This document shows, in pieces, positions 7,626 through 28,251 of a DNA stretch of 64,000 nucleotides. Numbering within the stretch: position 1 is the stretch's first letter; the number at the start of each line of letters is the position of its first letter. The notes beneath the pieces were generated by a model. It saw only the letters and a program-made list of their open reading frames with translations, had not been told where the DNA came from and searched no databases. Where the stretch lies: assembly GCA_963843775.1 (NCBI GenBank), contig CAWJLT010000012.1:954223-1018222 (forward strand), in the 5' to 3' direction. This DNA comes from an uncultured Actinomycetota bacterium. GTDB taxonomy: Bacteria; Actinomycetota; Actinomycetes; Propionibacteriales; Nocardioidaceae. A program made the position numbers and the translations under genes.

Positions 7626-9011
7626 TCAGAGACGGGCTGCGTCGACCAGCTCGTGCATGGACTCCGTGATCGCGTCGGCGAGCACGTCGAGGTCGCGCGC
7701 CGTCTCGTAGTCTCCGGTGAGACCGAAGGTCAGGGTGTCCCGGTAGGAGAAGATCGCCACTCCGATCCGCACCCGGTCGGCGATCGGCACGTAGGGCAGC
7801 ACTTCCTGCAGCTCACAGCCCAATGCGTAGAGCGTCGCGCGGGGGCCGGGCACGTTGGTGGTCACGGTCGCGATCTGTCGCTGCGGTAGCCGCAGGCCGA
7901 GCCTGATGCCCTCGGACACAGCGGCGAAGGGACCGAACGCCGCGAGCGAGATCAGGCTGCCTCCGGCCTCCGGCTCGTGGCTGGCCTGCAGCTCGTGGAT
8001 CCGCCGATGGACGGTCTCCAGCCGCTCCACCGGGTCCGCCACGTCGACGGGCAGGTACGGGAGCATCAACGAGACCCGGTTGTCGGGGATGGACTCCTCG
8101 CCGGGTGCCCGCATCGAGACCGGGACCAGCGAGCGGAGTGCGTGTGCGTCAGGAGTCTCGCCGCGATGCTGGAGCAGGCGTCGGAAGCCTCCGGTCACCG
8201 CCGCGAGCGCGACGTCGTTCACTGTCACGTCGTGGGCGGCGCGCACGGTCCGGATGTCCGTCAGGGAGGCCTGCGTCCAGGCGTAGCGGCGACTCCCGTC
8301 GAGCGGTCCTGTCAGGGACGTGGCGTGGACCGGGCGCGCGGCGGCGGCGAGCTTCCACAGGCCCTGGGTCGAGGCCGAGGCGGTGAGGGCCAGCCGGCGC
8401 GGCGCTGCGACGGTCCTGATGACGGCTCGGGCGGTCTGCACCGGTGAGGCCACGACCTCGAGGATCGCGGCGGCCGTGAAGGACGCGGCGGAGTCGGGTG
8501 TCTTCGCCGTCCAGCCGTCGGCCACCGGCTCTCGCGGGGAGGCGGTGGGGTCGAGGATGAGACGGTAGAGATCAGAGCCGGAGACGCCGTCGACCATGCT
8601 GTGGTGGATCTTGGACAGCAGAGCCCATCGGCCGTCGGCCAGCCCCTCGCAGAACCAGTACTCCCACAAGGGACGATGGCGATCCATCCGTTGTGACATC
8701 ACCCCGCTGATGAACTCGTCGATCTCGTGGCGACCGCCCGGACTCGGCAGGGCCGCACGCCGGAGATGCCTGCTGAGGTCGAACTCCGGATCATCGACCC
8801 ACGCCGGTGTGGCCAGGTCGAAGACCACGCGCCTCACTTTCTGGCGGTACCGCGGGATCAGCGGAAGGCGGCCCTCGATCGTCCTGGCGAACTCGTCGAA
8901 GTCAGGTGCGGGTCCCTCGAAGACGGCGAGGGAGCCGATCGCCAACGACGCGTGCTGATCGACGTCCTCGGCCTCGAGGAAGGTGGCTGCGAGCGGAGTG
9001 AGTCTGTCCAC
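7626..9011 (-). CDS. Wax ester synthase/diacylglycerol acyltransferase (WS/DGAT, Tgs-like)
   Basis: It has the HHSMVDGVSG active-site motif (HHxxxDG) and the typical N-terminus LTPLAATFLEAED. A GTG start at 9011 fits better than the track ATG at 9212. Confidence 0.85.
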   Translation of the reverse strand: MDRLTPLAATFLEAEDVDQHASLAIGSLAVFEGPAPDFDEFARTIEGRLPLIPRYRQKVRRVVFDLATPAWVDDPEFDLSRHLRRAALPSPGGRHEIDEFISGVMSQRMDRHRPLWEYWFCEGLADGRWALLSKIHHSMVDGVSGSDLYRLILDPTASPREPVADGWTAKTPDSAASFTAAAILEVVASPVQTARAVIRTVAAPRRLALTASASTQGLWKLAAAARPVHATSLTGPLDGSRRYAWTQASLTDIRTVRAAHDVTVNDVALAAVTGGFRRLLQHRGETPDAHALRSLVPVSMRAPGEESIPDNRVSLMLPYLPVDVADPVERLETVHRRIHELQASHEPEAGGSLISLAAFGPFAAVSEGIRLGLRLPQRQIATVTTNVPGPRATLYALGCELQEVLPYVPIADRVRIGVAIFSYRDTLTFGLTGDYETARDLDVLADAITESMHELVDAARL

Positions 9012-9138
9012 GGGCCCAGCCTCGTCCAGCGACGGAGCGTGCAGCAGAGGCGAAGGTCCTGTCCGCGGTCGGTCTTCGCCCCCAGGCAGGGGACCTCCGA
9101 CCCTGCCGTGGCACGCCACGGAGGAGCAGGGTCGACGC

Positions 9139-10506
9139 ATGGCCACCAGACCGATCGATCCTGTGGACACCATCTGGCTCAACATGGACCGCGCCAACAA
9201 CCTGATGGTCATCGAGAGCCTGATGATGCTGGAGAGTCCGCCGGACTGGGAGCGGTTCCTCGACGTCCTGCAGCGACGGGTGGTCGACGTCTACCCCGTG
9301 TTCAGCCAGCGCGCCGTCCCGGCCGTGGCCGGTCTGCCCCTCCTGCCGTCGCGCTGGGAGGACGACGCCGACTTCTCGCTGACACGTCATGTCCACCGGG
9401 TCACGCTGCCCGGCCCCGGGGGTGATGGGGAGCTTCAGGCCTACGTGACCTCGCACCTGAGTACGCCGCTGCCGCGTGACCGTCCGCTCTGGGAGATGCA
9501 CCTCGTCGACGGCTACCGCGACGGCGCGGCGATCTACAGCCGCCTGCACCACGCCATGGCTGACGGGATCGCGCTGACACAGGTGTTGCTGTCGCTCACC
9601 GACGAGACGCCGGAGGTCGCCGCCGACGCGCCCCCGACGATGCGGCCGTCCACGCGCAGTCGGCTCGGCTCGGCGGTGCACCTGGCCGGCGCCACTGCGT
9701 CGTTTCTGCTCGACGCCCCCCGTCTGCTCACCACCGCACATCTGGGCGAGGCCGTGAAGCTCGCCGCGAAGACCACCGGTGTCACCACGAAGCTGCTGCT
9801 CGCCCGGAACCCGGACTCAGTCGTGTCCGGCGTGGCCACGGTGTCCAAGCGTGCCATCTGGGCTCCGCCGATCCCGCTGGACGAGGTCGTGTCGGTCGCC
9901 CACAGGACGGGCACCACGGTCAACGACGTGCTGATGTCGGCCCTCGCGGGGGCGTTGTCGACGTACCTCACGACGCATCACGGTGTGGCCGTCGACATCC
10001 CGACGATGGTGCCGATCAACCTGCGTCCGCACGACGAGCCGTTGCCCCGTGAGCTGGGCAACCGGTTCGCCCTGGTGTTGTACACGCTGCCCAGCGGTCT
10101 GGGGACGTCGTTCGCCCGACTGGCCGAGACCAAACGCCGGATGGACGCGATCAAGAGCTCGCCGGAGGCGTTGCTGACCATGGGGATGATCCAGGGGATC
10201 GGGCACACCGGCCCCGAGCTCGAACGGCTCGTGGTCGACTTCTTCGCGAACAAGGCGACAGGGGTGACCACCAACGTGCCAGGGCCGTCGACGTCGCGAT
10301 ACGTGGCGGGAACGCGTATCGCGGCCATGCTCGGGTGGGCTCCGGAGTCGGGCAACCAGGCGTTGGGGACTGCCATCTTCAGCTACGACGGGTCCGTGTT
10401 CGTCGGGTTCAAGGTGGACACCGGCATCATCACCCACCCCGAGGACCTTCTGGCGGCGTTCAACGACGAGATCGAAGCGTTGCGCCGAATGGCCCCGGCC
10501 GGCTAG
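9139..10506 (+). CDS. WS/DGAT family O-acyltransferase (second, diverged copy)
   Basis: It has the HHAMADGIAL motif. The start MATRPIDPVDTIWLNMD at the 9139 ATG is in frame with the track ORF 8983..10506. Confidence 0.85.
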   Translation: MATRPIDPVDTIWLNMDRANNLMVIESLMMLESPPDWERFLDVLQRRVVDVYPVFSQRAVPAVAGLPLLPSRWEDDADFSLTRHVHRVTLPGPGGDGELQAYVTSHLSTPLPRDRPLWEMHLVDGYRDGAAIYSRLHHAMADGIALTQVLLSLTDETPEVAADAPPTMRPSTRSRLGSAVHLAGATASFLLDAPRLLTTAHLGEAVKLAAKTTGVTTKLLLARNPDSVVSGVATVSKRAIWAPPIPLDEVVSVAHRTGTTVNDVLMSALAGALSTYLTTHHGVAVDIPTMVPINLRPHDEPLPRELGNRFALVLYTLPSGLGTSFARLAETKRRMDAIKSSPEALLTMGMIQGIGHTGPELERLVVDFFANKATGVTTNVPGPSTSRYVAGTRIAAMLGWAPESGNQALGTAIFSYDGSVFVGFKVDTGIITHPEDLLAAFNDEIEALRRMAPAG

Positions 10507-11020: not shown

Positions 11021-11905
11021 TCATCTCTCGCCGGGACCAGTCGGGGGAACGATCTCGACGGGGCAACGTGCCTCGTGCAGGACCGCGCGGGTGACTGACC
11101 CGAGGTGGTGCAGGACACCGGGGTGCTCCGGGCGTGCGAGCAGCACACGGTCTGCTGTCGCGGAGGCGCTGACGAGCGCGAACGCGGGCTGGGCGTGCAG
11201 CACCTCCACGCGGAGCGCGACGTCGGGGTATCCCTGCCTGAGGTCGTTCATCACTGGTTCGATCAGGCTGGTCATGCGATGCCCGTAGCCGTCGGCGTCG
11301 ACGCGGCTGGCGATGATGTCGTCGTACCCGGACTGGAGCTTCCAGGCGTGTACGACGAGCAGCTCGGCCTTGCCTCCGTGCGCCAGGGCCAGGCCGGCCG
11401 CGAGCAGCCCTGGGGCGTCACCCAGCGACTTCAAGCCGACCACGACGCGGTCGTGCTTCTCGCTGGCGTCCCACTCAGGGGCGACGACGACGACCGGGCA
11501 CTCCGCTCGGGCGGCAGCTCCGCCGACGATGTCGCCGGTCCAGATGCGGCCGACGAAGGAGCGACGTTCGGCTCCGAGGACAAGCAGCAATGCGCGCTCG
11601 GCCATGGAGACCAGGGTGGGTACCGCGCTCCCGGAGAGAAGGTGAGTTCTCACCTTCACGCTCGGGGTCGCCGAGCGGGCGACGGCTTCGGCGTCGTCGA
11701 GCAGCCTCCGCCCGTAGGCGGCGAGTGTCTGGTCGTCGATCATCGGGATGTCGCCATGGGTGTCGCCGTCACCAGGTGTGGCATGGACGATGTCGAGCTC
11801 GGCGCCCAGCCGCTGGGCCTCGAGCGCGGCGTACTCCACGCCTCTGTTGCTTGCCGGGGTGGCGTCGATCCCGACGACGATCTGTGCTGCCGTTTCGCTA
11901 GCCAT
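11021..11905 (-). CDS. Universal stress protein, tandem USP domains
   Basis: 294 aa. It contains two USP-like halves, each ending with the G-x2-G-x9-G(S/T)V pattern (e.g. HHLGSVTRAVLHEARCPV). Confidence 0.85.
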   Translation of the reverse strand: MASETAAQIVVGIDATPASNRGVEYAALEAQRLGAELDIVHATPGDGDTHGDIPMIDDQTLAAYGRRLLDDAEAVARSATPSVKVRTHLLSGSAVPTLVSMAERALLLVLGAERRSFVGRIWTGDIVGGAAARAECPVVVVAPEWDASEKHDRVVVGLKSLGDAPGLLAAGLALAHGGKAELLVVHAWKLQSGYDDIIASRVDADGYGHRMTSLIEPVMNDLRQGYPDVALRVEVLHAQPAFALVSASATADRVLLARPEHPGVLHHLGSVTRAVLHEARCPVEIVPPTGPGER

Positions 11906-12056
11906 GTCGGTCCCTTCCGATCAGCCCATGTTCCACGCCATCCAGCGGTCCGCAGCAGGGTCTCTGGGCCCTAGCGGCTGGGCCGAAGGTCTCCTCCCGT
12001 TTGCGCGTGCCGTTTCCCAGGGGGTTCGAGTCACGGTCTGGCCTAGGTTGGGACGC

Positions 12057-12539
12057 ATGGACATCGAGGAACTGCTTCTCCCCGGGGTGGGACTGCGCTA
12101 CGAGTTCGTCAACCACCGTGGTGCCCGGGTGGGGGTCGTGGCTCTCCGCAGCGGCGGGTTCGAGGTTTCGCTCTACGAGGGGACCGATCCCGATCTTGCT
12201 ACCTCGACATTCCATCTCGATCCCCAGGAAGCTGACGCGCTGGCCCAGATCCTGGGGGCACCCCGGATCTCCGAGCGGTTCGCCGACCTCACCCGCGAAG
12301 TGCCTGGACTGTCCGCGGGGCAGGTCGAGATCAAGGCTGGTGGAACCTACGCCGACCGCCCACTCGGAGAGACCAGAGCCCGCACCCGTACCGGCGCGTC
12401 CATCGTGGCGCTGGTCCGCGGCGACCACGTGGTCGCCTCACCCGGACCGGCTGAGATCCTGCGGGCGGGTGACGTCCTCGTGGTCATCGGAACCAGTGAG
12501 GGTCTGTCGGGGGTCGTGAGCCTGATCGCCTCCGACTGA
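12057..12539 (+). CDS. Cation:proton antiporter regulatory subunit (KhtT/YhaT-like, TrkA_C/RCK_C domain)
   Basis: The ATG at 12057 opens MDIEELLLPGVGLRYEF, and the C-terminal part reads LGETRARTRTGASIVALVRGDHVVASPGPAEILRAGDVLVVIG. It lies directly upstream of a CPA2 gene. Confidence 0.75.
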   Translation: MDIEELLLPGVGLRYEFVNHRGARVGVVALRSGGFEVSLYEGTDPDLATSTFHLDPQEADALAQILGAPRISERFADLTREVPGLSAGQVEIKAGGTYADRPLGETRARTRTGASIVALVRGDHVVASPGPAEILRAGDVLVVIGTSEGLSGVVSLIASD

Positions 12540-12540
12540 C

Positions 12541-13713
12541 GTGGCGGTCTCGACAGGGTTGTTGCTCGAGCTCGGACTGCTGCTGCTGGTGCTGACGGTT
12601 CTCGGCTCCGGTGCCCGCAAGGTGGGGTTGTCACCGATCCCGCTCTACCTGCTGGCGGGGCTGTTCCTCGGCCAGGGCGGGATCGCGCCCGTGGCGGCCA
12701 CCCATGACTTCGTCGAGGCGGGAGCCTCGATCGGTCTGGTGCTGCTGCTGCTCGTCCTGGGACTCGAGTTCACCGTCGACGAGTTCACCACCAGCCTGCG
12801 TCGTCACCTGGGGTCAGCGGTCGTCGACCTCGTCCTCAACGCGACACCCGGGGCCCTGGCCGGTTGGTTGATCGGTCTCGACGCCGTGGGGGTCGTGGCC
12901 CTCGCGGGCGCGACGTACATCTCGTCCTCAGGCATCATCGCGCGAGTGCTCGGAGACCTGCAGCGGTTGGGCAACCGGGAGACCCCGGCCGTCCTCTCCG
13001 TCCTCGTCCTCGAGGACTTCGCCATGGCCGCCTACCTCCCCGTCCTGGCCGTGCTCGCCTCGGGAGGCACCTGGTGGCAGGCAGTCATCGGCGTCGCGGT
13101 CGCTCTGGGCGCCTTGAGCGGCGCCCTGGTGGCCTCGCAGCGCTACGGTCACCGCGTGGGACAGCTGGTCTCCCACCCCGATGCCGAGCAGCTGCTCCTG
13201 CGGGTCCTGGGCCTCACGCTCGTCGTCGCCGCCTTCGCCGAGTTCGTCCACGCCTCCGCCGCGGTCGGAGCCTTCCTCGTCGGCCTCACCCTCACCGGCG
13301 ACGTCGCGGTCAGGGCACGAGCCGTCCTCTCACCCCTGCGGGACCTGTTCGCAGCGGTGTTCTTCCTCGCCATCGGTCTCTCCGTCGACCCCGCCGACCT
13401 GCTGCCTGCCCTCCCTGTGGCCATCCTGCTGGCGGTCGTGACGGCCCTGACCAAGATCGCCACCGGCTGGTACGCAGCCGGCCGGGAAGGGGCTGGGTCC
13501 CCGGGGCGGTGGCGTGCCGGGACCGTGTTGACGGCCCGCGGGGAGTTCTCCCTGGTCATCATCGGCCTGGTCGGGACCCAGCACGCATCGCTGGGCGACC
13601 TGGTGACCGCCTACGTCCTCGTGCTCGCCATCGTGGGTCCACTCCTCGCCCGAGCGCCCGCTCCCAGCCTGCTCGTAGGTCCCAGGACGAAACCCGTGGA
13701 CCCGGGGCCTTGA
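12541..13713 (+). CDS. CPA2-family cation:proton antiporter (KhtU/YhaU-like)
   Basis: 390 aa and polytopic, with a Na+/H+ exchanger-type helix pattern. It starts 2 nt after the KhtT-like stop. Confidence 0.85.
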   Translation: MAVSTGLLLELGLLLLVLTVLGSGARKVGLSPIPLYLLAGLFLGQGGIAPVAATHDFVEAGASIGLVLLLLVLGLEFTVDEFTTSLRRHLGSAVVDLVLNATPGALAGWLIGLDAVGVVALAGATYISSSGIIARVLGDLQRLGNRETPAVLSVLVLEDFAMAAYLPVLAVLASGGTWWQAVIGVAVALGALSGALVASQRYGHRVGQLVSHPDAEQLLLRVLGLTLVVAAFAEFVHASAAVGAFLVGLTLTGDVAVRARAVLSPLRDLFAAVFFLAIGLSVDPADLLPALPVAILLAVVTALTKIATGWYAAGREGAGSPGRWRAGTVLTARGEFSLVIIGLVGTQHASLGDLVTAYVLVLAIVGPLLARAPAPSLLVGPRTKPVDPGP

Positions 13714-15770: not shown

Positions 15771-16142
15771 TCAGGTGTCCGACGGGTTGGCGGCGGAGAG
15801 CTCGGCGAGCCTGATCAGGCAGTGTTGGCGGAGCGGTTCCGGGAAGCCCTGCGCCAGCCGGTAGAACACCATGCGCCCTTCCTTGCGTCGGTTGACGAGC
15901 CCCGCGGTGCGGAGCATCCGGAGTCCGTAGCCGACCGAGTCCTCGGAGGCATCGAGCGCCAGGGCCAGGTCTCCGACGCAGAGCTCCTCGGCGGCATCCA
16001 GCGCGAACAGCAGGCGCATGCGGGTGGGATCGGCGATCAGGGTGAGCACGCTGGTGACTCGTTCAGCCTCCGACGGCCCCGGGATGCGCTCCTTGGCGCG
16101 GTCGACTGCCCCGGGGTCAACGGGGTGTGCGTGGTCGGGCAT
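15771..16142 (-). CDS. ArsR/SmtB-family metalloregulator
   Basis: 123 aa from the ATG at 16142. The sequence LIADPTRMRLLFALDAAEELCVGDLALALDASEDSVGYGLRMLRTAGLVNRRKEGRMVFYRL is a canonical winged HTH. The ELCVGDLA motif has a single Cys in the alpha3 position. Confidence 0.9.
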   Translation of the reverse strand: MPDHAHPVDPGAVDRAKERIPGPSEAERVTSVLTLIADPTRMRLLFALDAAEELCVGDLALALDASEDSVGYGLRMLRTAGLVNRRKEGRMVFYRLAQGFPEPLRQHCLIRLAELSAANPSDT

Positions 16143-16158
16143 GGTCGTCCTCCAGGAA

Positions 16159-16182
16159 ACACCCGCATGACGACACGGGTGT
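16159..16182. promoter_or_regulatory. Candidate ArsR operator: 7-bp perfect inverted repeat ACACCCG-N10-CGGGTGT
   Basis: It lies 17-40 nt upstream of the arsR start, in the divergent arsR / nuoA-like intergenic region. Confidence 0.4.
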
Positions 16183-16213
16183 CGGGTATGTAGCGTAGGT
16201 CCTGACCGGCGCC

Positions 16214-16268
16214 CAGCCAACATCCGCAGCCAACCATCACAGCCAACATCCACAGCCAACGTCCACAG
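16214..16268 (+). repeat. Tandem 13-bp repeat CAGCCAAC(N)TCCA, four full copies plus a partial fifth, running into the nuoA-like RBS
   Basis: The units are cagccaacatccg / cagccaaccatca / cagccaacatcca / cagccaacgtcca / cagcgaaggagg. GAAGGAGG sits 5 nt before the GTG at 16284. Confidence 0.85.
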
Positions 16269-16283
16269 CGAAGGAGGTGGCCG

Positions 16284-16625
16284 GTGACTTCGCTGTTGTT
16301 CCTCATCGTCGCCTCGCTCGGCGCCGTGGTGGCCCTCCGACTGCTGGCCCGTTGGACCACGGTGTCGGCGAGTCCCTTCGAGGTCGAGCCGTGGCTGTCG
16401 GGACATCGTCCGACCGAGCACGCACTCTCGAGGTACCACGCCCGCTGGTACACGGCCAGCGTGGTGTTCCTCGCCTTCGACGTCGAGATGCTCTTCATGT
16501 ATCCCTGGGCGGTCGTGGTGGGACACCTCGGGCCGGGGGCCGTGGTGGAGATGTTCGGGTTCCTGCTGGTGCTGTTGCTGGCCGTCGGTTGGGCGCGCCG
16601 CGAAGGAGCGTTCCGGTGGGCCTGA
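16284..16625 (+). CDS. nuoA: NuoA-like (ND3-type) membrane subunit
   Basis: 113 aa. The segment YHARWYTASVVFLAFDVEMLFMYPWAVV matches the conserved NuoA core (FDvE..flyPWA). Confidence 0.85.
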   Translation: MTSLLFLIVASLGAVVALRLLARWTTVSASPFEVEPWLSGHRPTEHALSRYHARWYTASVVFLAFDVEMLFMYPWAVVVGHLGPGAVVEMFGFLLVLLLAVGWARREGAFRWA

Positions 16626-17668
16626 TCGATCTGCTGACCAGGGCGGCGAGCTCCCGCGCTCACGTCCTCGTCGCAGAGGCGCCGGGTGCGTTCCGGGAGC
16701 GGGTGGCCGTGGAGCGTGCCCTCGACCAGATGGGTTGGTGCGTCGCCGAGTCGGTGGCGGACGCGGACGTGCTCGTGGTCGTGGGTGAGCCCGGTGAGAC
16801 TCTCGCGGCCGTGGCCGAGCACGTGTGGGCGCAGATGTCGGAGCCACGTGCGCGGCTCCACGTGCGCGCCGAGATCGAGGTGGAGGTGCTTCTCCACCAG
16901 GCTCGCGAGCAGCTCCGTGAGGGTGTGCGGCGCCTCACCGGGCCGGAGGTACGACGCGGCTTCACCCCCTCCGCCGAGGCCATGACGCACGACGAGGGCG
17001 ACCACGACGGAGCCGGCGGGCACGACCACTCCGCGATGATGCCCGACGGGATCCCACTGGCCGAGGGGGCCGAGGACCGCGACGGACTGGAGATGGACCA
17101 GCTCCATCTGCCGCTGGGGCCGGTGCTCGCACACTGGCCCGCCGGGCTCGTCCTCCAGGTCACCCTGAACGGGGACGTCGTCGTCGAGGCCGAGGTCCAA
17201 CAGCTCGCGACCACAGGAGCCGCCTCGAGTCCCGACGACGCGAACGTGCGAGCAGCGCGCCTGCTGGACGCGGCCGGCTCGGTGCTGGTCCTTGCCGGGC
17301 TGCCCGCCGATTCGGCGCGAGCGCGACGCCTGCGGGATCGGTGTCTCGACGGTGAGGCGGTGGGCGGCCGCGAGGTGGCCGGGCTCGGCGACCGCGTCGG
17401 TCGGCGGCGGGTGCTGCGGTGGGTTCTGCACGGACTCTCGGCCGCGGGCAGTCACAGCCGGTCCGAGGAGCTGCACGACCGACTCACGGGTCTGTTCGAG
17501 CGCGCGCGGGCCGAGCTCGACGGGGAGGCGCCGCCACACGTCATGCAGGGTGCCGAGGCGCTTCCCACGCTCGTCCGGGGGATGGAGCTGTCCGCGGTCA
17601 GGCTGTGGGTGGCGGCACTGAAGCCGGACCTGGCCGAGCATGAACGGTCGGAGGCCTCGGGTGGTTGA
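16616..17668 (+). CDS. Degenerate fused NuoB-like / NuoD-like protein lacking Fe-S cluster ligands, with a His/Asp/Met-rich linker
   Basis: It is 350 aa from the GTG at 16616, in the same frame as track ORF 16277..17668, whose first part overlaps nuoA.
- aa ~45-85 (ADADVLVVVGEPGETLAAVAEHVWAQMSEPRARLHV) resembles the NuoB segment PRQaDvmiVaGt.t.KMap.l..vydQMpEPrwViSmG.
- aa ~160-195 (LHLPLGPVLAHWPAGLVLQVTLNGDVVVEAEV) resembles the NuoD N-terminus LNfGPQHPaaHGvLRLvleLdGE.V..a.
- The whole protein has only 2 Cys. Confidence 0.6.
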   Translation: MGLIDLLTRAASSRAHVLVAEAPGAFRERVAVERALDQMGWCVAESVADADVLVVVGEPGETLAAVAEHVWAQMSEPRARLHVRAEIEVEVLLHQAREQLREGVRRLTGPEVRRGFTPSAEAMTHDEGDHDGAGGHDHSAMMPDGIPLAEGAEDRDGLEMDQLHLPLGPVLAHWPAGLVLQVTLNGDVVVEAEVQQLATTGAASSPDDANVRAARLLDAAGSVLVLAGLPADSARARRLRDRCLDGEAVGGREVAGLGDRVGRRRVLRWVLHGLSAAGSHSRSEELHDRLTGLFERARAELDGEAPPHVMQGAEALPTLVRGMELSAVRLWVAALKPDLAEHERSEASGG

Positions 17669-19191: not shown

Positions 19192-19490
19192 CGCTGGAGA
19201 CGGTGCTGCTCGTGGCGGCTGCACTGATCGCGGTGGGGGTCTACGGCACCCTGTCGCAGCAGGTGGTCGTGATGGTGATGATGGGCCTGGAGCTGATGAT
19301 CAACGGCATCATCCTGGCCGCGGGCGGGCTGTGGTGGTTCCTCGCCCCCGACCCGTCCGGGCAGGTGCTGCTGCTGGTGGTCATCGCGGCGATGACCGTG
19401 GAGATGGCGATGGGGTTCGCCGTCGCCACGCTCGTCCACCGCCAGGCCGGACACGACATGACCGACATGGCAGCGGAGCTGCACGGCTGA
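19188..19490 (+). CDS. nuoK: NuoK-like (ND4L-type) membrane subunit
   Basis: 100 aa. GLELMINGIIL and AAMTVEMAMGFAV match the two conserved NuoK glutamate helices. It has an ATGA overlap with nuoJ. Confidence 0.85.
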   Translation: MTLETVLLVAAALIAVGVYGTLSQQVVVMVMMGLELMINGIILAAGGLWWFLAPDPSGQVLLLVVIAAMTVEMAMGFAVATLVHRQAGHDMTDMAAELHG

Positions 19491-21364
19491 TGCTCGATCT
19501 CACTCTCGTTGCGCTCGTGGTCGTGCCTGCCGTCCTCGGTGCACTGCTGCTGATGGTCGGAGCCTCGGCCGACCGGATCGCCGCTCCGGTCGGAGTCGGG
19601 TCGGCCACCCTCCTGGCGGTCGCCGCTCTCGCGGTCTCCTTCCCCGCGGCGTCGCGGCCCTCGGTGGCCACGCCTTTCATGGCGGGGTCTGAGCTGGGTC
19701 TGCGTGTCGACGGGCTGGCCGCGCTGGTGCTGCCGACTGTCGCCGTCGTGTCGGCACTGGTGCTGCTGGCGGCGACCGGCACTCCGGAGCTCCGCACGCC
19801 GCGGTTCCACGGCCTGATGCTCCTCTTCGTGGCAGCTGCCCTGATGACGGTGCTGGCCACCACCCTGCCCACGCTGTTGCTGTCGTGGGAGGTGATGGGG
19901 GCGACGTCGTACGCGCTGATCGCCTACCACTGGCGTGACCAGGAGGCGGTCAGCTCGGGCACGACGGCGTTCCTGACGACCCGGACCGCTGACGTCGGTC
20001 TCTACGTGGCGGCCGGCGCCGCGTTGGCGGGGGGAGCGGGACTGGGCCTGTCATCTCTTCCCGGGGCCTCCGAGGGGTGGCGCGACGTCGTGGCCGCGGG
20101 GTTGCTGGTGGCGGGGCTCGGGAAGGCGGCCCAGCTGCCGTTCTCGTTCTGGCTGTCGCGGGCCATGCACGGCCCCAGCCCGGTGAGCGCCCTCCTGCAC
20201 TCGGCGGCGATGGTCGCCATGGGCGGCTACCTGCTGCTGCGGGTCTCCCCGACCCTGGCGGCGACGGGGTGGGCCGACACCGCGGCGGCGTGGGCCGGTG
20301 CCACCACCGCCGTCCTGCTCGGTCTGGTCGCGCTGGCCCAGAGCGACCTCAAGCAGCTCCTCGCTGCCTCCACCGCGGCCCAGCTCGGTTTCGTGGTCCT
20401 CGCGGCCGGGGTCGGGGCCACCGCAGGCGGCGCCACCCACCTGGTCGCCCACGCGGCGGTCAAGGCCGGTCTGTTCCTCGCCGCCGGCATCTGGCTGGAG
20501 GCGCTCGGCACCAGACGTCTCGCCTCGCTCACCGGGGCAGCCCGCCTCTGGCCCGTGGTCGGGGCCTGCGCCACTGCGGGCCTGCTCTCCCTGGCAGGAC
20601 TCCCACCGCTGGCCCTGTGGGCGACCAAGGACGCCGTGCTCGCCGCCGCGGCCGAGCAGTCAGCGGCGCTCTACGTGACCGGGCTGCTGGGGGCAGCGCT
20701 GTCGGCCGCGTACGCCACCAAGGCGCTGGTCGTGCTGACGCGGCGCCCTTCCGAGGACGCGGAGTCGGGTTGGGACGAGGAGCGTGACGGCACCCGGACG
20801 GTGCCGAGGACCTCATGGATCCCGGTCCTCCCGCTGGCGCTGGGAGCGGTCGTCCTCGGTCTGCTCGCGCTGCCGCCGCTCTTCGAGCGGGTGCACGAGA
20901 TGGTCGGCGGCACCGCCGCCCCCGAGCCCGGTTTCGCCGGGCTGCTGACCTCGGCCCTGATCGCGACTTCCGTGGTCACCCTGACGGTGCTGTCGATCCG
21001 GACCGCTCACAGCCGGCGGCTCACCTGGCCCCGAGGGCTCACGAGCTGGCTGTTCCTCGAGACCTGGGCGCACCGGATCGTCGTCGGGCCCGTGGAACGG
21101 CTGGCCCAGCGATTGGCCCACGTCGACGACGCCGTGCTGGACCGCGGCGTCGAGGCGACCGCGCGTGGGACGGTGCGGCTGACGCGTATCGCAGCACTCA
21201 TCGACGACCGCGCCATCGACGGTGGTGTCGCTGCGGTCGTGTCCGCGGTTCGAAGGCTCGGAGGCCTGGCCCGTAGACCGCAGACCGGGCAGCTCCATCA
21301 GTACTACCTCCAAGCGTTGGCCGTGCTGGCTCTCGTCCTCGTCGTCCTTGTCCTCGTGAGGTGA
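19490..21364 (+). CDS. nuoL: NuoL-like (ND5-type) antiporter-like subunit with C-terminal lateral helix
   Basis: The start MLDLTLVALVVVPAVLG overlaps the nuoK stop (TGATG). It has a typical WEVMGATSY core. The C-terminus DDRAIDGGVAAVV...RPQTGQLHQYYLQALAVLAL is the long amphipathic helix plus the last TM. Confidence 0.9.
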   Translation: MLDLTLVALVVVPAVLGALLLMVGASADRIAAPVGVGSATLLAVAALAVSFPAASRPSVATPFMAGSELGLRVDGLAALVLPTVAVVSALVLLAATGTPELRTPRFHGLMLLFVAAALMTVLATTLPTLLLSWEVMGATSYALIAYHWRDQEAVSSGTTAFLTTRTADVGLYVAAGAALAGGAGLGLSSLPGASEGWRDVVAAGLLVAGLGKAAQLPFSFWLSRAMHGPSPVSALLHSAAMVAMGGYLLLRVSPTLAATGWADTAAAWAGATTAVLLGLVALAQSDLKQLLAASTAAQLGFVVLAAGVGATAGGATHLVAHAAVKAGLFLAAGIWLEALGTRRLASLTGAARLWPVVGACATAGLLSLAGLPPLALWATKDAVLAAAAEQSAALYVTGLLGAALSAAYATKALVVLTRRPSEDAESGWDEERDGTRTVPRTSWIPVLPLALGAVVLGLLALPPLFERVHEMVGGTAAPEPGFAGLLTSALIATSVVTLTVLSIRTAHSRRLTWPRGLTSWLFLETWAHRIVVGPVERLAQRLAHVDDAVLDRGVEATARGTVRLTRIAALIDDRAIDGGVAAVVSAVRRLGGLARRPQTGQLHQYYLQALAVLALVLVVLVLVR

Positions 21365-24292: not shown

Positions 24293-24335
24293 CCGAAGGT
24301 CGGGTCCGGAAGGTCGGGGCCGGAAGGTCAGGGCC
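24293..24335. repeat. Three tandem 13-14-bp units CCG(G)AAGGTC(G/A)GGN in the convergent nuoN / multicopper-oxidase spacer
   Basis: The units are ccgaaggtcgggt / ccggaaggtcgggg / ccggaaggtcaggg. The last copy contains the oxidase stop codon. Confidence 0.6.
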
Positions 24336-25803
24336 GGTAGTTCAGGGCGATCATCATCCCGGCTTCGCCGTGGTAGACGTTGTGGCAGTGCGTCATCCAG
24401 GACCCAGGGTTGTCGGCCTGCAGGTCGACCGACAGCGATGACATCGGCTTGACGAGCACAGTGTCCTTCCGCAGGCCGTTGGGCAGGGCGAAGGTGTGAC
24501 CGTGAACGTGCATGGGGTGGGTCATCTGCGTCATGTTCATCAGCTGCAGACGGACCCGGTCACCCTCGTCGATCATGATCGGGTCGTTCTTCCCGTAGCG
24601 ATCCCCGTTGATGGCCCAGCGGTAGGGCGTCATCTGTCCGCTCAGGTGCACCATCTCGACAGCATCGGGATCCCGGGAGGGCAGCCGGGAGGCCTCGGCC
24701 GGCTCGAGGTCCGCGACCTCGAGGATCGCGCCGTCGAGCTCCGCCGGGTGGACGGCCGGGCCCGGTGCGCTGCCGGCGCCGGTGCGGATGAGGGCCATCG
24801 CCTGACCCTGTTTCCCGTAGGGCCTGGCGACGAGGGGGAACACGCCGTCCTCGAGGGTCACGATGGCGTCATAGCGTTCGCCCATGCCGATGTAGAAGGC
24901 GTCGGTCTCACGAGGCTGGACGGCGAAGCCGTCGGTGTGGGTGATGGTGAGCCGGTGTCCCCCGAGGGCGACGGTGAAGAGGGTGTCGGAGCCGGCGTTG
25001 ATGAGGCGTAGCCGGACGCGCTGGCCGGGCTTGCCGCGGAAGACGTCAGGAGCAGTCGGCGACGCGACCGTTGAGCAGGTAGTGGGGGTAGACGACGTCG
25101 CCCGCGTCCCCGAACGGTGATGTGCCGCCGCCCATGCCCATGTCCATGCCGCCGTCCATACCCGTCGCATGCCGCCTGAGCCCGTGCCCTGGGCGGCGGT
25201 GAGGTCGGCCAGCACGTCGTCGGGGGTGCGTCCGGTGCCGTCGACCCAGTCGTCGAGAACCACGACCCACTCCAGGTCGTAGTCGCCGGGCTCGTGTGGG
25301 TCGTCGATGATCAGTGGGGCGTAGAGGCCTCGGTCGAGCTGTAGACCGACGTGCGGGTGGTAGAAGTACGTGCCCGGTTCGGAGGCGGTGAACTCGTAGC
25401 GGAACGAGTCGCCGCTCCCGATCGGGTTCTGGGTCAGGCCGGGGACGCCGTCAGCCTCGTTGCGCAGCGCGATGCCGTGCCAGTGCACGGTGGTGTCCGC
25501 AGGAAGCTGGTTGTCCACCCGGATGCTGAGCATGTCGCCGGCGGTGGCGCGGATCAGCGGCCCAGGTGCACGGTCGCCGAAGGCCCAGGTGTCGACCCTG
25601 GTGCCACCCAGGTCCAGGGTCGTTGGCTTGGCGGTCAGGGTGTGCTCGACCACCCGCTGCCCCGCAGTCGGGGACAGTCGGGTGGGGGACCCGAAGGCCG
25701 GTGCTGCCCGGGTGCCGGAAGGCGTCGAGCAGGCCCCCAGCGCGCCGGCGGCCGTGACGGCCAGTCCGCCGAGCAGCAGGCTGCGGCGCGAGAAGTCAGG
25801 CAT
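24328..25803 (-). CDS. Tat-exported multicopper oxidase (CopA/CueO-like) with an internal segment apparently out of frame
   Basis: It has a twin-arginine lipoprotein-like signal (MPDFSRRSLLLGGLAVTAAGALGACS) and copper-site motifs (HWHG, HPHV, HPMHVHGH, HCHNVYHGEAGMM). Bases ~25049-25165 read WTAAWTWAWAAAHHRSGTRATSS in the gene frame. An alternate frame there encodes MDGGMDMGMGGGTSPFGDAGDVVYPHYLLNGRVA. Confidence 0.8.
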   Translation of the reverse strand: MPDFSRRSLLLGGLAVTAAGALGACSTPSGTRAAPAFGSPTRLSPTAGQRVVEHTLTAKPTTLDLGGTRVDTWAFGDRAPGPLIRATAGDMLSIRVDNQLPADTTVHWHGIALRNEADGVPGLTQNPIGSGDSFRYEFTASEPGTYFYHPHVGLQLDRGLYAPLIIDDPHEPGDYDLEWVVVLDDWVDGTGRTPDDVLADLTAAQGTGSGGMRRVWTAAWTWAWAAAHHRSGTRATSSTPTTCSTVASPTAPDVFRGKPGQRVRLRLINAGSDTLFTVALGGHRLTITHTDGFAVQPRETDAFYIGMGERYDAIVTLEDGVFPLVARPYGKQGQAMALIRTGAGSAPGPAVHPAELDGAILEVADLEPAEASRLPSRDPDAVEMVHLSGQMTPYRWAINGDRYGKNDPIMIDEGDRVRLQLMNMTQMTHPMHVHGHTFALPNGLRKDTVLVKPMSSLSVDLQADNPGSWMTHCHNVYHGEAGMMIALNYRP

Positions 25804-25939: not shown

Positions 25940-27049
25940 TCAGGCCGCACGCAGCCGGACGGTGAGCTCAGCACCGAGGCCAGGCCCGCCGCTGGAGGCG
26001 GTGATCTCTCCGCCGTGGGCCCTGACGAGTGCCTTGGCGATGCTGAGCCCGATCCCGGAGCCGCCGTGCGCGTGAGTACGTGCGGCGTCGGCGCGATAGA
26101 AGCGGTCGAAGACATGGTCCACGTGCTCGGGTGCGATGCCGTCGCCGGTGTCAGTCACGGCGTACTCGACCCAAGGCCCGCGAAGTGAGCAGGCGATCCG
26201 GACGGTGCCGCCCGCCGGCGTATGACGAAGGGCGTTGTCGAGCAGATTGGTGAGTACCTGGCCGATGCGGTCGGCGTCGACCACTATCCGGGCGTCGGTC
26301 TGCAGCATCAGTCTCGAAGGTGATGCCCGCAGCGGCGAAGCGGCCATCCGCCGCGCGGGCGGCGGCGCTCACGAGGTCTGATCGCAGCTGATCGTTCTCT
26401 CGTTCGATCTCCAAGGTGCCCTCCTCCGCACGGGAGACCGCGGAGATGTCCTCGGCGAGCCGCCTCAGCCGCTGCGTGCTCAACCGGATCACGCCCAGAG
26501 TGTCGTCGTCGAGAGTGCGTACACCATCCTCGATCGCCTCGAGGTGCGCGTCGACAGTGGCCAGCGGGGTCCGCATCTCGTGGGCCAGGTCGGCCAACAT
26601 CCGACGCCGGGTGGACTCGGTGGCCTCCAGACGCTCCGCAAGGGTGTTGCTCGTCGCAGCCAGGACCGCGAACTCCCGGCCGAGTCCAGGGTCGTTGACG
26701 TGGGCGTCGTACTGTCCCGCGGCCACGTGCTCGGCCGCCGTGGCCACCTGCGCGACGGAACGCTGCACCCGGCGCGAGAAGTACCACGTCACGACCAGAG
26801 CGGTGATGGTCGCAGCGAGCAGGGCGATCGAGATCGAGATGGCGAGCGAGGAGTTGAAGGCCCGCTCGACGTGACCTGCCTCGGTGGAGGTGTGCGAGAC
26901 ACCCGCGCGCTGGAGGTGGTCACGGAAGATCGCGGGGCCGACGATCGCGGCCACGACCCAGGTCGTCGCGGCCCGGCGAGCAGGACCAAGGCCTGGGCGC
27001 CGAGGAGCCGCGCCCCGAAACCGGCCCGACCGCGTTCGTGACCGTTCAT
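25940..27049 (-). pseudogene. Sensor histidine kinase (CopS/CusS-like) split over three reading frames
   Basis: - Frame 1 starts at the 27049 ATG, with an ATGA overlap on the regulator stop (MNGHERGRAGFGARLLGAQALVLLAG).
- Frame 2 is track ORF 26151..27059, with HAMP and the H-box LADLAHEMRTPLA.
- Frame 3 is track ORF 25940..26347, with the N, G1 and G2 boxes (LLDNALRHTP, DTGDGI, GGSGIGLSIA).
- The shifts lie near 26968-26980 and 26305-26325. Confidence 0.75.
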
Positions 27050-27738
27050 TCGCCCGCACCCATCCGGTAGCCGACCCCGCGGACGGTGCGCACGTAGCGG
27101 CTGTCGGCGGCGTCGTCGTGCAGCTTGCGACGTAGATGCCCGATGTGGACGTCGACGAGGTGCTCGTCGCCCACCCAGGCTGGTCCCCACACCTGGTCGA
27201 TGAGCTGACGTCGGGTGAAGACGATCTTCGGGCGCTCCGACAGTGCGGCCAACAGGTCGAACTCGGTACGGGTCAGCGCCACCGGCTCGTCATCGAGCCA
27301 GACGTCATGACCGGCACGGTCGATGCTGAGCGCGCCGAAGGAGTCAGGCCGCGCACTCGCGGCCCCCTCCTGGGCGAGCGGGCGTGGACGGCGCAACATC
27401 GCCTGCACGCGGGCCATCAGCTCGCGGGGGCTGAACGGCTTGGTGAGGTAGTCGTCGGCGCCCACGGAGAGGCCGATGAGGGTGTCCACCTCAACGCTAC
27501 GGGCGGTCAGCATGACCAGGTAGGCATCGGAGAAGGTGCGCAGCTGCCGGCACACCTCGATGCCATCCAGACCAGGTAGACCGAGGTCCAGGACGACGAC
27601 ATCAGGATCGACTTCCCGCGCGAGATCAACCGCCCGCAGCCCGTCACCCGTCGAGGACGCGTCGAACCCGTCGCGTTCGAAGTAGCTGACGAGCAACCCG
27701 GCCAACGCGGTCTCGTCCTCCACGATCAGGGCGCGCAT
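27046..27738 (-). CDS. OmpR/PhoB-family response regulator (CopR/CusR-like)
   Basis: MRALIVEDETALAGLL...VVLDLGLPGLDG is the receiver domain. The C-terminal winged helix reads LTRTEFDLLAAL...VRGVGYRM. The start is at the internal Met (27738) of the track ORF. Confidence 0.9.
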   Translation of the reverse strand: MRALIVEDETALAGLLVSYFERDGFDASSTGDGLRAVDLAREVDPDVVVLDLGLPGLDGIEVCRQLRTFSDAYLVMLTARSVEVDTLIGLSVGADDYLTKPFSPRELMARVQAMLRRPRPLAQEGAASARPDSFGALSIDRAGHDVWLDDEPVALTRTEFDLLAALSERPKIVFTRRQLIDQVWGPAWVGDEHLVDVHIGHLRRKLHDDAADSRYVRTVRGVGYRMGAGE

Positions 27739-27969
27739 TCCCGACCGTGGTCTCTCAGGAGCGGCCGCCGCTCCGGCAGCTCCGAGCCCGGGCGGGGAAC
27801 CGGAGCGCGCAGAAGACATGGCCTTCATGGTGCCAGCCCGGACCGGTGAGAAGACGCAGACGGTGAATCGGTGAGGACTTCTTCAACGAACCTTCACACA
27901 ACCACGACCAGACGTGCGGGGTGCTCGCGTCATGGTGGAGGGACAAGCCGAGTTGAGGAGTTGTTCACG

Positions 27970-28251
27970 ATGATGGACTGGTATGGGAACGGCATGGGCA
28001 CCGGAGGTTGGGTCGCGATGATCGCGATGATGATGATCTTCTGGGGGCTGGTCATCCTCGCGGGTGTGTTGATCTTCCGCGGCAGCAGCCATCGTCGCAA
28101 TGACGCCGGCACGCAACACGCGAGCGCGCTGGAGATCCTTGATGACCGCTTCGCGCGGGGCGAGGTCGACCCCGAGGAGTACGAGGCGCGCAAGGTCCGC
28201 TCTGCGGGGAAGCGCACGCTGACCCGTGACCCCTCGACCCGATGGCCGTGA
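27970..28251 (+). CDS. SHOCT-domain small membrane protein
   Basis: MMDWYGNGMGTGGWVAMIAMMMIFWGLVILAGVLIF is followed by LEILDDRFARGEVDPEEYEARK, the SHOCT signature. Confidence 0.75.
   Translation: MMDWYGNGMGTGGWVAMIAMMMIFWGLVILAGVLIFRGSSHRRNDAGTQHASALEILDDRFARGEVDPEEYEARKVRSAGKRTLTRDPSTRWP

Follow-up and report, generated by a model that had tools for sequence, protein, structure and literature searches.

A fused, cut-down NuoB-NuoD protein without iron-sulfur ligands, encoded in a nuo-like operon linked to the copper-homeostasis genes of Actinomycetota

What becomes of two subunits of complex I when they are joined in one short protein that can no longer hold an iron-sulfur (Fe-S) cluster is the question raised by a gene in a 64,000-nucleotide (nt) stretch of DNA of ~70% GC (the window) from an uncultured actinobacterium of the Nocardioidaceae. 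The gene, at positions 16616-17668 of the plus strand, encodes 350 amino acids (aa) plus a stop. An earlier note, made from the letters of the sequence, had described its product as a fused relic of NuoB and NuoD and had proposed that it is a structural plug or adaptor derived from the Q-module, in which a metal-binding loop may have replaced the redox site. The analysis described here showed that the product is a fused, cut-down NuoB-NuoD protein without iron-sulfur ligands. It would be the only soluble, cytoplasmic member of a complex of eight subunits descended from respiratory complex I, NuoA'-[B.D]'-H'-J'-K'-L'-M'-N' (primes mark the versions encoded by this operon), from which all redox-cofactor sites have been lost. 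That complex belongs to the copper-homeostasis gene sets of Actinomycetota, both chromosomal and plasmid-borne, and this link is well supported. The features of the locus are collected in Table 1.

The reading frame and start of the gene are sound because GC at the three codon positions (0.85/0.49/0.87) is typical of a coding frame in a genome of ~70% GC and because the homologs share the start MGL.... The start codon is a GTG lying 6 nt 3' of a GAAGGAG ribosome-binding site, and the start region overlaps the stop of the preceding nuoA-like gene by 10 nt. A different frame or start making the region non-coding, which the earlier note had named as a refutation of its proposal, is thus not supported. 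Overlapping open reading frames (ORFs) on the minus strand (16037-17641 and 15771-16847) and in other frames were rejected on codon-position GC and on conservation of the plus-frame product; they are the usual shadows of high-GC DNA. The translation contains only two Cys, at aa 42 and 243, as had been read before, and it has neither a signal peptide nor a transmembrane segment; its homology with the Q-module suggests that it faces the cytoplasm. A Pfam scan found no model that covers the protein. A template-free AlphaFold model of the full length had a mean predicted local distance difference test score (pLDDT) of 82 and a predicted template-modelling score (pTM) of 0.79. Its layout is beta1-alpha1-beta2-alpha2-beta3 plus a long helix, disorder over aa 115-152, a three-stranded sheet at 162-196 and a helical bundle at 209-348, and Foldseek comparison of this model with the PDB returned NuoB-type and NuoD-type chains only. 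An origin from the Q-module subunits NuoB and NuoD is supported, for NuoB by profile and fold and for NuoD by predicted fold.

The NuoB-like stretch recognised earlier corresponds to aa 48-83 and its similarity is beyond chance. When the whole set of PDB sequences was searched with a profile built from 48 homologs, the 35 chains matched were all NuoB, NDUFS7, Nqo6, NdhK or MbhJ (best E 1.4e-5, positions 35-83), and hhalign placed aa 43-84 of the protein on residues 86-127 of E. coli NuoB with an E of 2e-5. The match to NCBIfam nuoB_fam was sub-threshold (E 0.006, aa 33-79), TIGR01957 gave 16.6 bits against a cut-off of 142.7 and so did not reach the curated NuoB threshold, and PF01058 (Oxidored_q6) was matched weakly (E 0.11 or worse) by three of the 48 members. 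The secondary structure of this half was predicted with pLDDT 86-95. Foldseek of the full model returned NDUFS7, NuoB, NdhK and HycG over ~137 aligned columns, with a template-modelling score (TM-score) to the target chain of ~0.5 and a probability of 1.00. The flavodoxin-like NuoB fold is present, restricted to beta1-beta3, and the beta4 element is missing from the model.

The ligands of cluster N2, which in NuoB form the motifs CCxxE, C and CP, are gone, as the earlier note had claimed. Ungapped extension of the hhalign register places E. coli C63/C64 on A20/E21 and C129 on E86, and the element bearing the fourth N2 Cys is missing from the protein. Among 83 homologs (37-100% identity) no conserved Cys was found at the N2-ligand positions; the columns with Cys in at least 30% of them correspond to window residues 42, 56, 182 and 243 only, all outside the N2 positions. 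The residues conserved in at least 95% of homologs in this half are H16, E21, P23, G24, D51, P77 and R78. About 60% of the family, comprising its more distant members, carry Cys at columns 56 (in the context VVCG, in the NuoB-like beta2) and 182 (LRC, in the NuoD-like sheet); the window protein has Val in both places. Neither column corresponds to an N2 ligand, and the two could be a thiolate metal site lost by the Nocardioidaceae branch.

For the second half, the earlier claim of a NuoD-like N-terminal hairpin (aa 163-194) was borne out at the level of the predicted fold and not at that of the sequence; the reported size of ~190 aa (aa 162-350) was correct. A template-free AlphaFold model of aa 139-350 had a pLDDT of 80.7, and its top 50 Foldseek matches were all NuoD/NuoCD, NDUFS2/NUCM, NdhH, MbsL, HycE, Nqo4 or large subunits of NiFe(Se) hydrogenases. 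The TM-score to the query was 0.5-0.57 but the best E was a weak 1.5e-2 and the TM-score to the target chain ~0.3 or less, values obtained with about half of the fold and with a predicted structure. The alignments stretch over the whole of the target chains, which would fit a NuoD core with large deletions. At the sequence level no match to NuoD (PF00346, Complex1_49kDa) was found in a Pfam/NCBIfam scan of the protein and 48 members of the family. A hidden Markov model of the C-terminal domain found no match among PDB sequences and scored E. coli NuoCD no better than 646 of 2000 shuffles did. Finally, hhalign against E. coli NuoCD and against a 60-sequence enterobacterial NuoD alignment gave a probability of 0.1%, with a NuoD profile so shallow (homologs all at least 83% identical) that a deeper one might still succeed. 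Since the relation is undetectable in sequence, the motif resemblance pointed out in the earlier note is not evidence by itself. Kinship with NuoD is suggested by the predicted fold, by the gene order (between nuoA' and nuoH') and by a weak colinear likeness of C-terminal motifs, ALPxLVxGxELAAVRLvVASLdPD versus IPxxIxGxxvSDLivYLGSID. The NuoD-like sheet contains an invariant loop, GPxLxHWPxG (G168-W174 onward), with W174 present in 83/83, H173 in 67/83 and H164 in 65/83 homologs. H173 is borne by this loop, its register relative to the canonical quinone-ligating His of the beta1-beta2 loop not being fixed by an alignment that is insignificant. No counterpart of the region that carries the Tyr near N2 was recognised.

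The word relic, by which the protein had been introduced, was wrong. Homologs numbered 577 in a word-indexed search, and profile searching done exhaustively yielded at least 1160 clusters (50% identity, E <=1e-3), 578 of them at <=1e-30. In GTDB, taken at one genome per species, 406 places encode a relative, and the best 80 of these 406 are all from Actinomycetota, including Nocardioidaceae, Janibacter, Mycobacterium simiae, M. innocens, Mycolicibacterium, Cryobacterium, Kribbella, Pseudonocardia, Ornithinimicrobium and others. Seventeen plasmids carry the family, among them M. avium pMAH135 and Arthrobacter sp. FB24 plasmid 1, and the plasmid-borne members are annotated 'hypothetical' or 'DUF4779'. 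At about 57 positions the 83 homologs agree to 95% or more. Purifying selection thus acts on the family, which is large, has dozens of invariant residues and is spread by plasmids. The lost cofactor ligands, the loss of about half of NuoD, the low-complexity insertion and the absence of a Pfam model might all be read as signs of a functionless remnant of a duplicated nuo operon in decay. That reading is effectively refuted by conservation: reading frames are intact in 406 species, motifs are near-invariant over the whole range of identity, codon-position GC is of the coding type, the operon is strictly kept and the genes have spread on conjugative and mobilizable plasmids.

Table 1. Features of the operon, its control region and its immediate neighbours in the window
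Feature	Coordinates	Strand	Basis or remark
NuoB-like half of the fusion, aa 1-115	16616..16960	+	truncated NuoB-type domain without N2 cysteines; homology, fold, secondary structure
Linker, aa 116-140	16961..17035	+	disordered, His/Asp/Met/Gly-rich, variable length; pLDDT, composition
Acidic segment, aa 141-161	17036..17098	+	near-invariant MxPDGIPLAEGAEDRDGLEMD; 83 homologs
NuoD-like half, aa 162-350	17099..17668	+	pared-down NuoD-type domain by Foldseek: three-stranded N-terminal sheet, then helical bundle
nuoA-like, 113 aa	16284..16625	+	Pfam Oxidored_q4 E 8e-21; adjoins the fusion gene in 80/81 loci
nuoH-like, 316 aa	17640..18590	+	Pfam NADHdh E 1e-41; syntenic in 78/81 loci
nuoJ-like, ~190 aa	18619..19191 (start 18577 or 18619)	+	Pfam Oxidored_q3 E 1e-6; Met-rich TM3 and TM5
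nuoK-like, 100 aa	19188..19490	+	Pfam Oxidored_q2 E 4e-11
nuoL-like, 624 aa, full length	19490..21364	+	NCBIfam NuoL E 4.5e-82, positions 5-612 of 615
nuoM-like, 497 aa	21361..22854	+	TIGR01972 NDH_I_M 463.6 bits, cut-off 263.8
nuoN-like, 464 aa	22864..24258	+	TIGR01770 E 8.6e-84
ArsR/SmtB-family regulator, 123 aa, divergent	15771..16142	-	Pfam HTH_5; NCBIfam HTH_metalloreg E 2.7e-19
Inverted repeat ACACCCG-N10-CGGGTGT, arsR/nuoA' intergenic	16159..16182		candidate operator
13-bp tandem repeat CAGCCAACATCCA x4.3	16214..16269		Tandem Repeats Finder score 82; just 5' of the nuoA' ribosome-binding site
Tat-signal multicopper oxidase, convergent with the operon	24328..25803	-	Pfam Cu-oxidase, Cu-oxidase_2, Cu-oxidase_3, TAT_signal
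Two-component system: OmpR-type response regulator (27046-27828) and split histidine kinase (26151-27059 and 25940-26347)	25940..27828	-

The gene is always found in the same company. In every locus long enough to judge, the order is nuoA'-X-nuoH'-nuoJ'-nuoK'-nuoL'-nuoM'-nuoN', X being the fusion gene, and the genes overlap or abut. In more than 60 loci no gene for NuoC, NuoI, NuoE, NuoF or NuoG was found in the operon, and there was no room for one between the genes. Because these subunits are absent and the N2 Cys are gone, the complex would be without a recognisable Fe-S or flavin site. As the sole soluble partner of the NuoH-like subunit the fusion protein is fairly described as a structural plug or adaptor. 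The membrane arm looks functional but altered, with the proton machinery of NuoL' and NuoM' apparently intact. E144, D178, K229, H254, H338, K342, K399 and D400 of NuoL' are essentially invariant; NuoM' retains K234, K265, H322, H348 and E407, with E144 replaced by Asp; NuoN' retains K158, K247 and K395; and both E-channel glutamates of NuoK' are kept (equivalents of E36 and E72, in the conserved GLELM and TVEMAMG). The anomaly lies in NuoJ', where the family median is 10.1% Met, compared with 1.5-2.2% in NuoH', NuoL', NuoM' and NuoN' of the same operons and with 3.3% in E. coli NuoJ and ~3% in M. smegmatis NuoJ over the part that aligns. Positions at which Met is conserved in at least 80% of members are clustered in transmembrane helix (TM) 3 and the loop that follows it and in TM5, and the TM3 stretch LMMVMEMAvMAVYMVMFMGMNPA..LMPMSMVH has 11 Met versus 3 in M. 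smegmatis NuoJ.

These observations bear on whether the complex might still be a redox enzyme, one in which the cap recruits an electron-input module encoded elsewhere, or in which copper serves as the redox centre, and which pumps protons. The complex I superfamily has repeatedly swapped its input modules (PMC3144371), and the conserved GPxLxHWPxG loop would face the chamber where NuoD binds quinone. Such an enzyme is nevertheless very unlikely: there is no Cys-based cluster site, NuoI and NuoC are absent, about half of the fold has been lost from the NuoD-like part, and the conserved neighbours include no redox gene, the widely conserved ones being only regulators and copper-handling genes.

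The two halves are joined by a linker. The 22-residue stretch THDEGDHDGAGGHDHSAMMPDG (aa 124-145, nt 16985-17050) does contain the 4 His, 5 Asp and 2 Met that had been counted in it, and pLDDT is <50 over aa 115-136. With the linker bounded by the NuoB-like helix and the PxGIxLA motif, its length in 76 homologs ranges from 0 to 80 aa (median 38) and it cannot be aligned. Its composition in those homologs is 14.9% His, 18.8% Asp, 10.9% Met and 16.9% Gly, against 2.8%, 8.2%, 1.4% and 9.2% in the remainder of the same proteins, and it is built of repeats such as MDHGD, HEGMDHG and DMNMDMD. The linker is thus unconserved low complexity in sequence and conserved in chemistry. The earlier note had held that an unconserved low-complexity loop would speak against its proposal; the loop is indeed of that kind, and its composition is kept. 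The proposal that a metal-binding loop took the place of the redox site was also changed in part, in that the loop is an inter-domain linker and does not take the place of the N2 site proper. That the loop may bind metal has strong circumstantial support from its kept composition and from the copper-homeostasis genes around the operon. MDHG-type repeats resemble the Met/His copper-binding repeats of Pseudomonas CopA/CopB, a likeness that is compositional. The linker is followed by a near-invariant segment, aa 141-161, in which M141, P143, G145, I146, L148, A149, G151 and D154-D161 are at least 95% identical in the 83 homologs. This segment has low pLDDT in the monomer model and probably takes on order only within the complex. 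Among ligand-like residues conservation is highest for M141, M160, H164, H173 and W174, which lie just past the loop.

The link with copper was examined by clustering all ORFs that flank the operon in 81 loci and in the window. The recurrent neighbours were an ArsR/SmtB regulator, a histidine kinase with an OmpR-type regulator, a multicopper oxidase (MCO), DUF305, a CsoR-type repressor, an HMA (CopZ-like) protein and a P1B-type ATPase. When the count was restricted to the 61 loci of at least 15 kb, at least one of MCO, DUF305, CsoR, HMA and P1B-ATPase was present within 10 kb in 36. An MCO lies immediately downstream of the operon in seven loci and, by a <=600-nt measure, directly upstream on the same strand in four; by another count seven loci have an MCO match that begins 1.8-2.9 kb upstream on the operon strand, and the Arthrobacter FB24 plasmid adds one more. 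In 11 loci the nearest upstream gene on that strand is a copper gene. The window and its close relatives have a divergent arsR on the upstream side of the operon and, immediately downstream of it, an MCO exported by the Tat route. On the Arthrobacter FB24 plasmid (locus L083) a sulfocyanin-like Cu protein, DUF305 and MCO are directly upstream on the same strand, and on M. avium pMAH135 a MerR, a heavy-metal P-type ATPase and an HMA protein precede the operon. In locus L086 the order is csoR-copZ-copA-nuoA'-X-... on one strand, the copA stop overlapping the nuoA' start, and these copper genes are likely to be co-transcribed with the operon. Because the copper-gene arrangements differ between lineages, functional linkage is favoured over common ancestry of a single island. 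Taken with the sequence features, this makes a copper-related role of the complex highly probable.

It could be argued that the complex is a generic Mrp-like Na+/K+/H+ antiporter or pH module, in which the NuoB-NuoD remnant seals the NuoH' end, the loop is tolerated low complexity and the copper genes are co-travellers in an island. The antiporter residues are intact, Mrp, a relation of the membrane arm of complex I, is itself redox-free (PMC7419157), 25 of the 61 loci are without recognisable copper genes, the loop varies in length and is at times nearly absent, and 3 kb upstream in the window there is a Kef-type Na_H_Exchanger gene. Co-travellers would not readily account for the csoR-copZ-copA-operon with its overlapping genes or for MCO, DUF305, HMA or P1B ATPase genes immediately upstream on the same strand, nor would tolerated low complexity account for a loop composition kept, with no free drift, over 37-100% identity. 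The position-conserved Met clusters of NuoJ' are without parallel in canonical NuoJ, and the regulator is from a metal-sensor family. A generic antiporter is on balance unlikely.

The identity of the regulator leads to the question of which metal. The ArsR/SmtB regulator is divergent from the operon in 21 loci, and at least 90% of 24 orthologs share its Cys55 (ELCVGDL) and its Cys108 (QHC). The inverted repeat in the intergenic region is probably the ArsR operator: a palindrome ACCCG...CGGGT (ATACCCG...CGGGTAT in distant loci) was found in most of the 22 related loci listed with the divergent arrangement. The 13-bp tandem repeat follows this candidate promoter/operator and precedes the ribosome-binding site of nuoA'. 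In L003, the closest relative (protein 90% identical), the unit occurs once, and therefore the expansion is local. At the matching position L005 and L010 hold a different short repeat, CCGGCCAGC x3, so that the spot before nuoA' appears to expand repeatedly.

The usual effectors of ArsR/SmtB regulators are Zn, Ni, Co, Cd, Pb or As, and a complex-I-derived transporter or sensor for Zn, Ni, Co, Cd or Pb in place of copper has to be considered. His/Asp-rich loops are typical of Ni/Zn proteins (weak matches to UreE_C and ZrgA stem from this composition), and cadmium and P-type ATPase genes occur on the FB24 plasmid stretch. The neighbours are however of the copper type (CsoR-family repressor, HMA chaperone, MCO, DUF305 and sulfocyanin-like protein), and the residue enriched in both the loop and NuoJ' is Met, a ligand of Cu(I) and Ag(I) and rarely of Zn or Ni. 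Another metal is thus quite improbable.

Within a copper-related role, the reading favoured is that of an exporter of Cu(I), possibly also of Ag(I), driven by the proton motive force, and it is put forward tentatively, with at best about an even chance of being right. The fusion would cap NuoH' and NuoA' as the Q-module does, and its loop would capture cytoplasmic Cu(I), perhaps from CopZ. The ion would be passed to a chamber replacing the quinone site, lined by M141, M160, H164, H173 and W174 of the invariant segment and the hairpin, and would then travel along the Met-rich TM3 and TM5 of NuoJ' and the E-channel of NuoK'. Inward flow of protons through the NuoL' and NuoM' antiporter modules would pay for the export, as in Mrp, and the exported Cu(I) would be oxidised by the neighbouring MCO. 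If so, monoderm bacteria could have, in addition to the P1B ATPases, a third energetic class of copper efflux, with a metal route through the quinone chamber and E-channel and a NuoB-NuoD cap for acquisition, a proposal that is rather less likely than not to hold in full.

Several points weigh against export of Cu(I) by such a route. The transport steps are inferred from gene content and composition, and to our knowledge the exit from the E-channel to the outside has not been established even in complex I. Met/His ligation is commoner at extracytoplasmic than at cytoplasmic Cu(I) sites, and besides being unalignable the linker is short or His-free in a few members (e.g. L045). The TM5 Glu of NuoN (E. 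coli E133), which adjoins NuoK in complex I, is Leu in 62/64 members of NuoN', and K217 is Glu in 13/64; these changes suggest that the first antiporter module is rewired in the family. Met enrichment of NuoK' (10%) was dropped as a diagnostic after NuoK of M. smegmatis was found to have 7.1% Met at partly the same VMxM..ELM positions, and since a canonical mycobacterial NuoK is already so rich, only NuoJ' is clearly anomalous. The commonest regulator is of the ArsR/SmtB type; its two Cys also fit sensing of Cd, Pb or Zn or of persulfide, and the BigR and CmtR models score comparably. The 25 loci in which no copper gene was recognised within 10 kb must also be set against the 36, and the few percent (~4%) expected for a random 20-kb window is the author's estimate and not a measured background.

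Comparison with known systems places the complex as a variant of the complex I superfamily, whose function would be categorically new if transport is confirmed. Like complex I (NDH-1) it has homologs of NuoA, H, J, K, L, M and N in canonical order, with the key Lys, Glu and His of L and M and both NuoK glutamates, and a cap with NuoB-type and NuoD-type folds encoded between nuoA and nuoH. Unlike complex I it has no N2 Cys, NuoC, NuoI or NuoEFG and hence no electron path here; its NuoB and NuoD are fused without NuoC between them, each at roughly half to two-thirds of normal size; it has the His/Asp/Met loop insert, the Met-rich TM3 and TM5 of NuoJ' and the loss of the NuoN' TM5 Glu; and its operon is found in copper islands and on plasmids. 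Judged by the thresholds, Cys ligands and sequence profiles of those families the cap is neither a NuoB nor a NuoD, and a complex with no electron path is not complex I. The known NuoB-D fusions, in the NUO12 operons of some deltaproteobacteria, are part of complete complex I operons (PMC4758237).

Mrp is the best functional analogy, as a redox-free relative of the membrane arm with NuoL/M/N-like and NuoK-like subunits that moves a cation against protons (PMC7419157). Mrp differs in having MrpB/E/F/G and in lacking NuoH, NuoA and any NuoB/NuoD remnant, its substrate is Na+ or K+, and NuoL', NuoM' and NuoN' score far higher on Nuo than on Mrp NCBIfam models. NDH-1MS with CupA/CupS (PMC6358722) and DabAB (bioRxiv 10.1101/476713) resemble the system in that complex-I-type or PF00361 modules drive a non-redox reaction via an added soluble metal-dependent subunit. 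NDH-1MS however retains an Fe-S-containing Q-module, and in both cases the added subunits are unrelated to the fusion protein and the chemistry is CO2 hydration and not metal transport. Ehr and other complexes related to group 4 hydrogenases likewise have a NuoD-type subunit without the ancestral metal ligands (PMC4758237). Their membrane subunits are of the hydrogenase type, whereas those of the present system are of the Nuo type. Ehr-type complexes also keep Fe-S-binding NuoB-type and ferredoxin-type subunits, of which this system has none.

The Met/His/Asp repeats, the set of Met, Met, His, His and Trp and the TM ladder of Met recall CusCBA/CusF, Pseudomonas CopA/CopB and CopB-type ATPases, a similarity of composition only, and the energy source proposed, the proton motive force, is that of CusA. 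There is no relation of sequence or fold to these Cus and Cop systems, which are RND pumps or periplasmic proteins of diderms, or ATPases. Full-text literature searches found no description of the operon or of the fusion protein. A 2025 census of complex I (PMC12361115) mentions 'Nuo-Partial' clusters and plasmid-borne nuo genes, and the family is not described in the relevant passages.

Some further observations were made on the neighbouring genes. A pair homologous to the histidine kinase and response regulator, accompanied by a SHOCT protein, adjoins the operon in ~20-24 loci; the latter is a small membrane protein with a SHOCT-like C-terminus, found at 27871-28251 (+) in the window, at 18627-18881 in L001 and at 19560-19820 in L086. 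In the window the kinase is split, with HAMP and HisKA in 26151-27059 and the ATPase domain in 25940-26347 (best model cztS_silS_copS heavy-metal sensor kinase). L086 has intact one-piece kinase homologs at the matching position, and the split appears to be either a frameshift or an assembly error. The best NCBIfam match of the window MCO is copper_res_A (E 1e-84, below the cut-off of that model), which matches in three separate pieces; a central stretch (…GMRRVWTAAWTWAWAAAHHRSGTRATSSTPTTCST…) looks compositionally odd and may reflect a local double frameshift across the usually Met-rich region of CopA-type oxidases. The Kef-type Na+/H+ exchanger gene, at 12541-13713 (+), is not a conserved neighbour of the operon (1/81 loci) and is preceded by an ORF (11748-12539, +) whose C-terminal part looks TrkA-C-like by eye. 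Two wax-ester synthase/DGAT genes on opposite strands, at 7626-9212 (-) and 8983-10506 (+), overlap by ~230 nt when read from their first start codons, and the true start of at least one of them probably lies further in.

What usually marks a relative of complex I is the redox module by which its membrane pump is driven. The widespread branch described here has shed all redox cofactors yet kept NuoH, NuoA and the skeleton of NuoB/NuoD, all of which Mrp is without, and it would be a natural experiment on the mechanical role of the Q-site/E-channel end of complex I, a cofactor-free minimal system of eight subunits in which the coupling of that end to the antiporter modules could be studied. The eight-gene set is at present unannotated, being entered as 'hypothetical' or 'DUF4779' together with 'NADH-quinone oxidoreductase subunits', and pipelines count its genes as respiratory complex I, with the result that calls of 'partial complex I' in Actinomycetota are inflated. 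Plasmids of actinobacteria from environmental and clinical sources, among them M. avium, M. intracellulare, Rhodococcus and Arthrobacter, carry the set along with copper-resistance genes.

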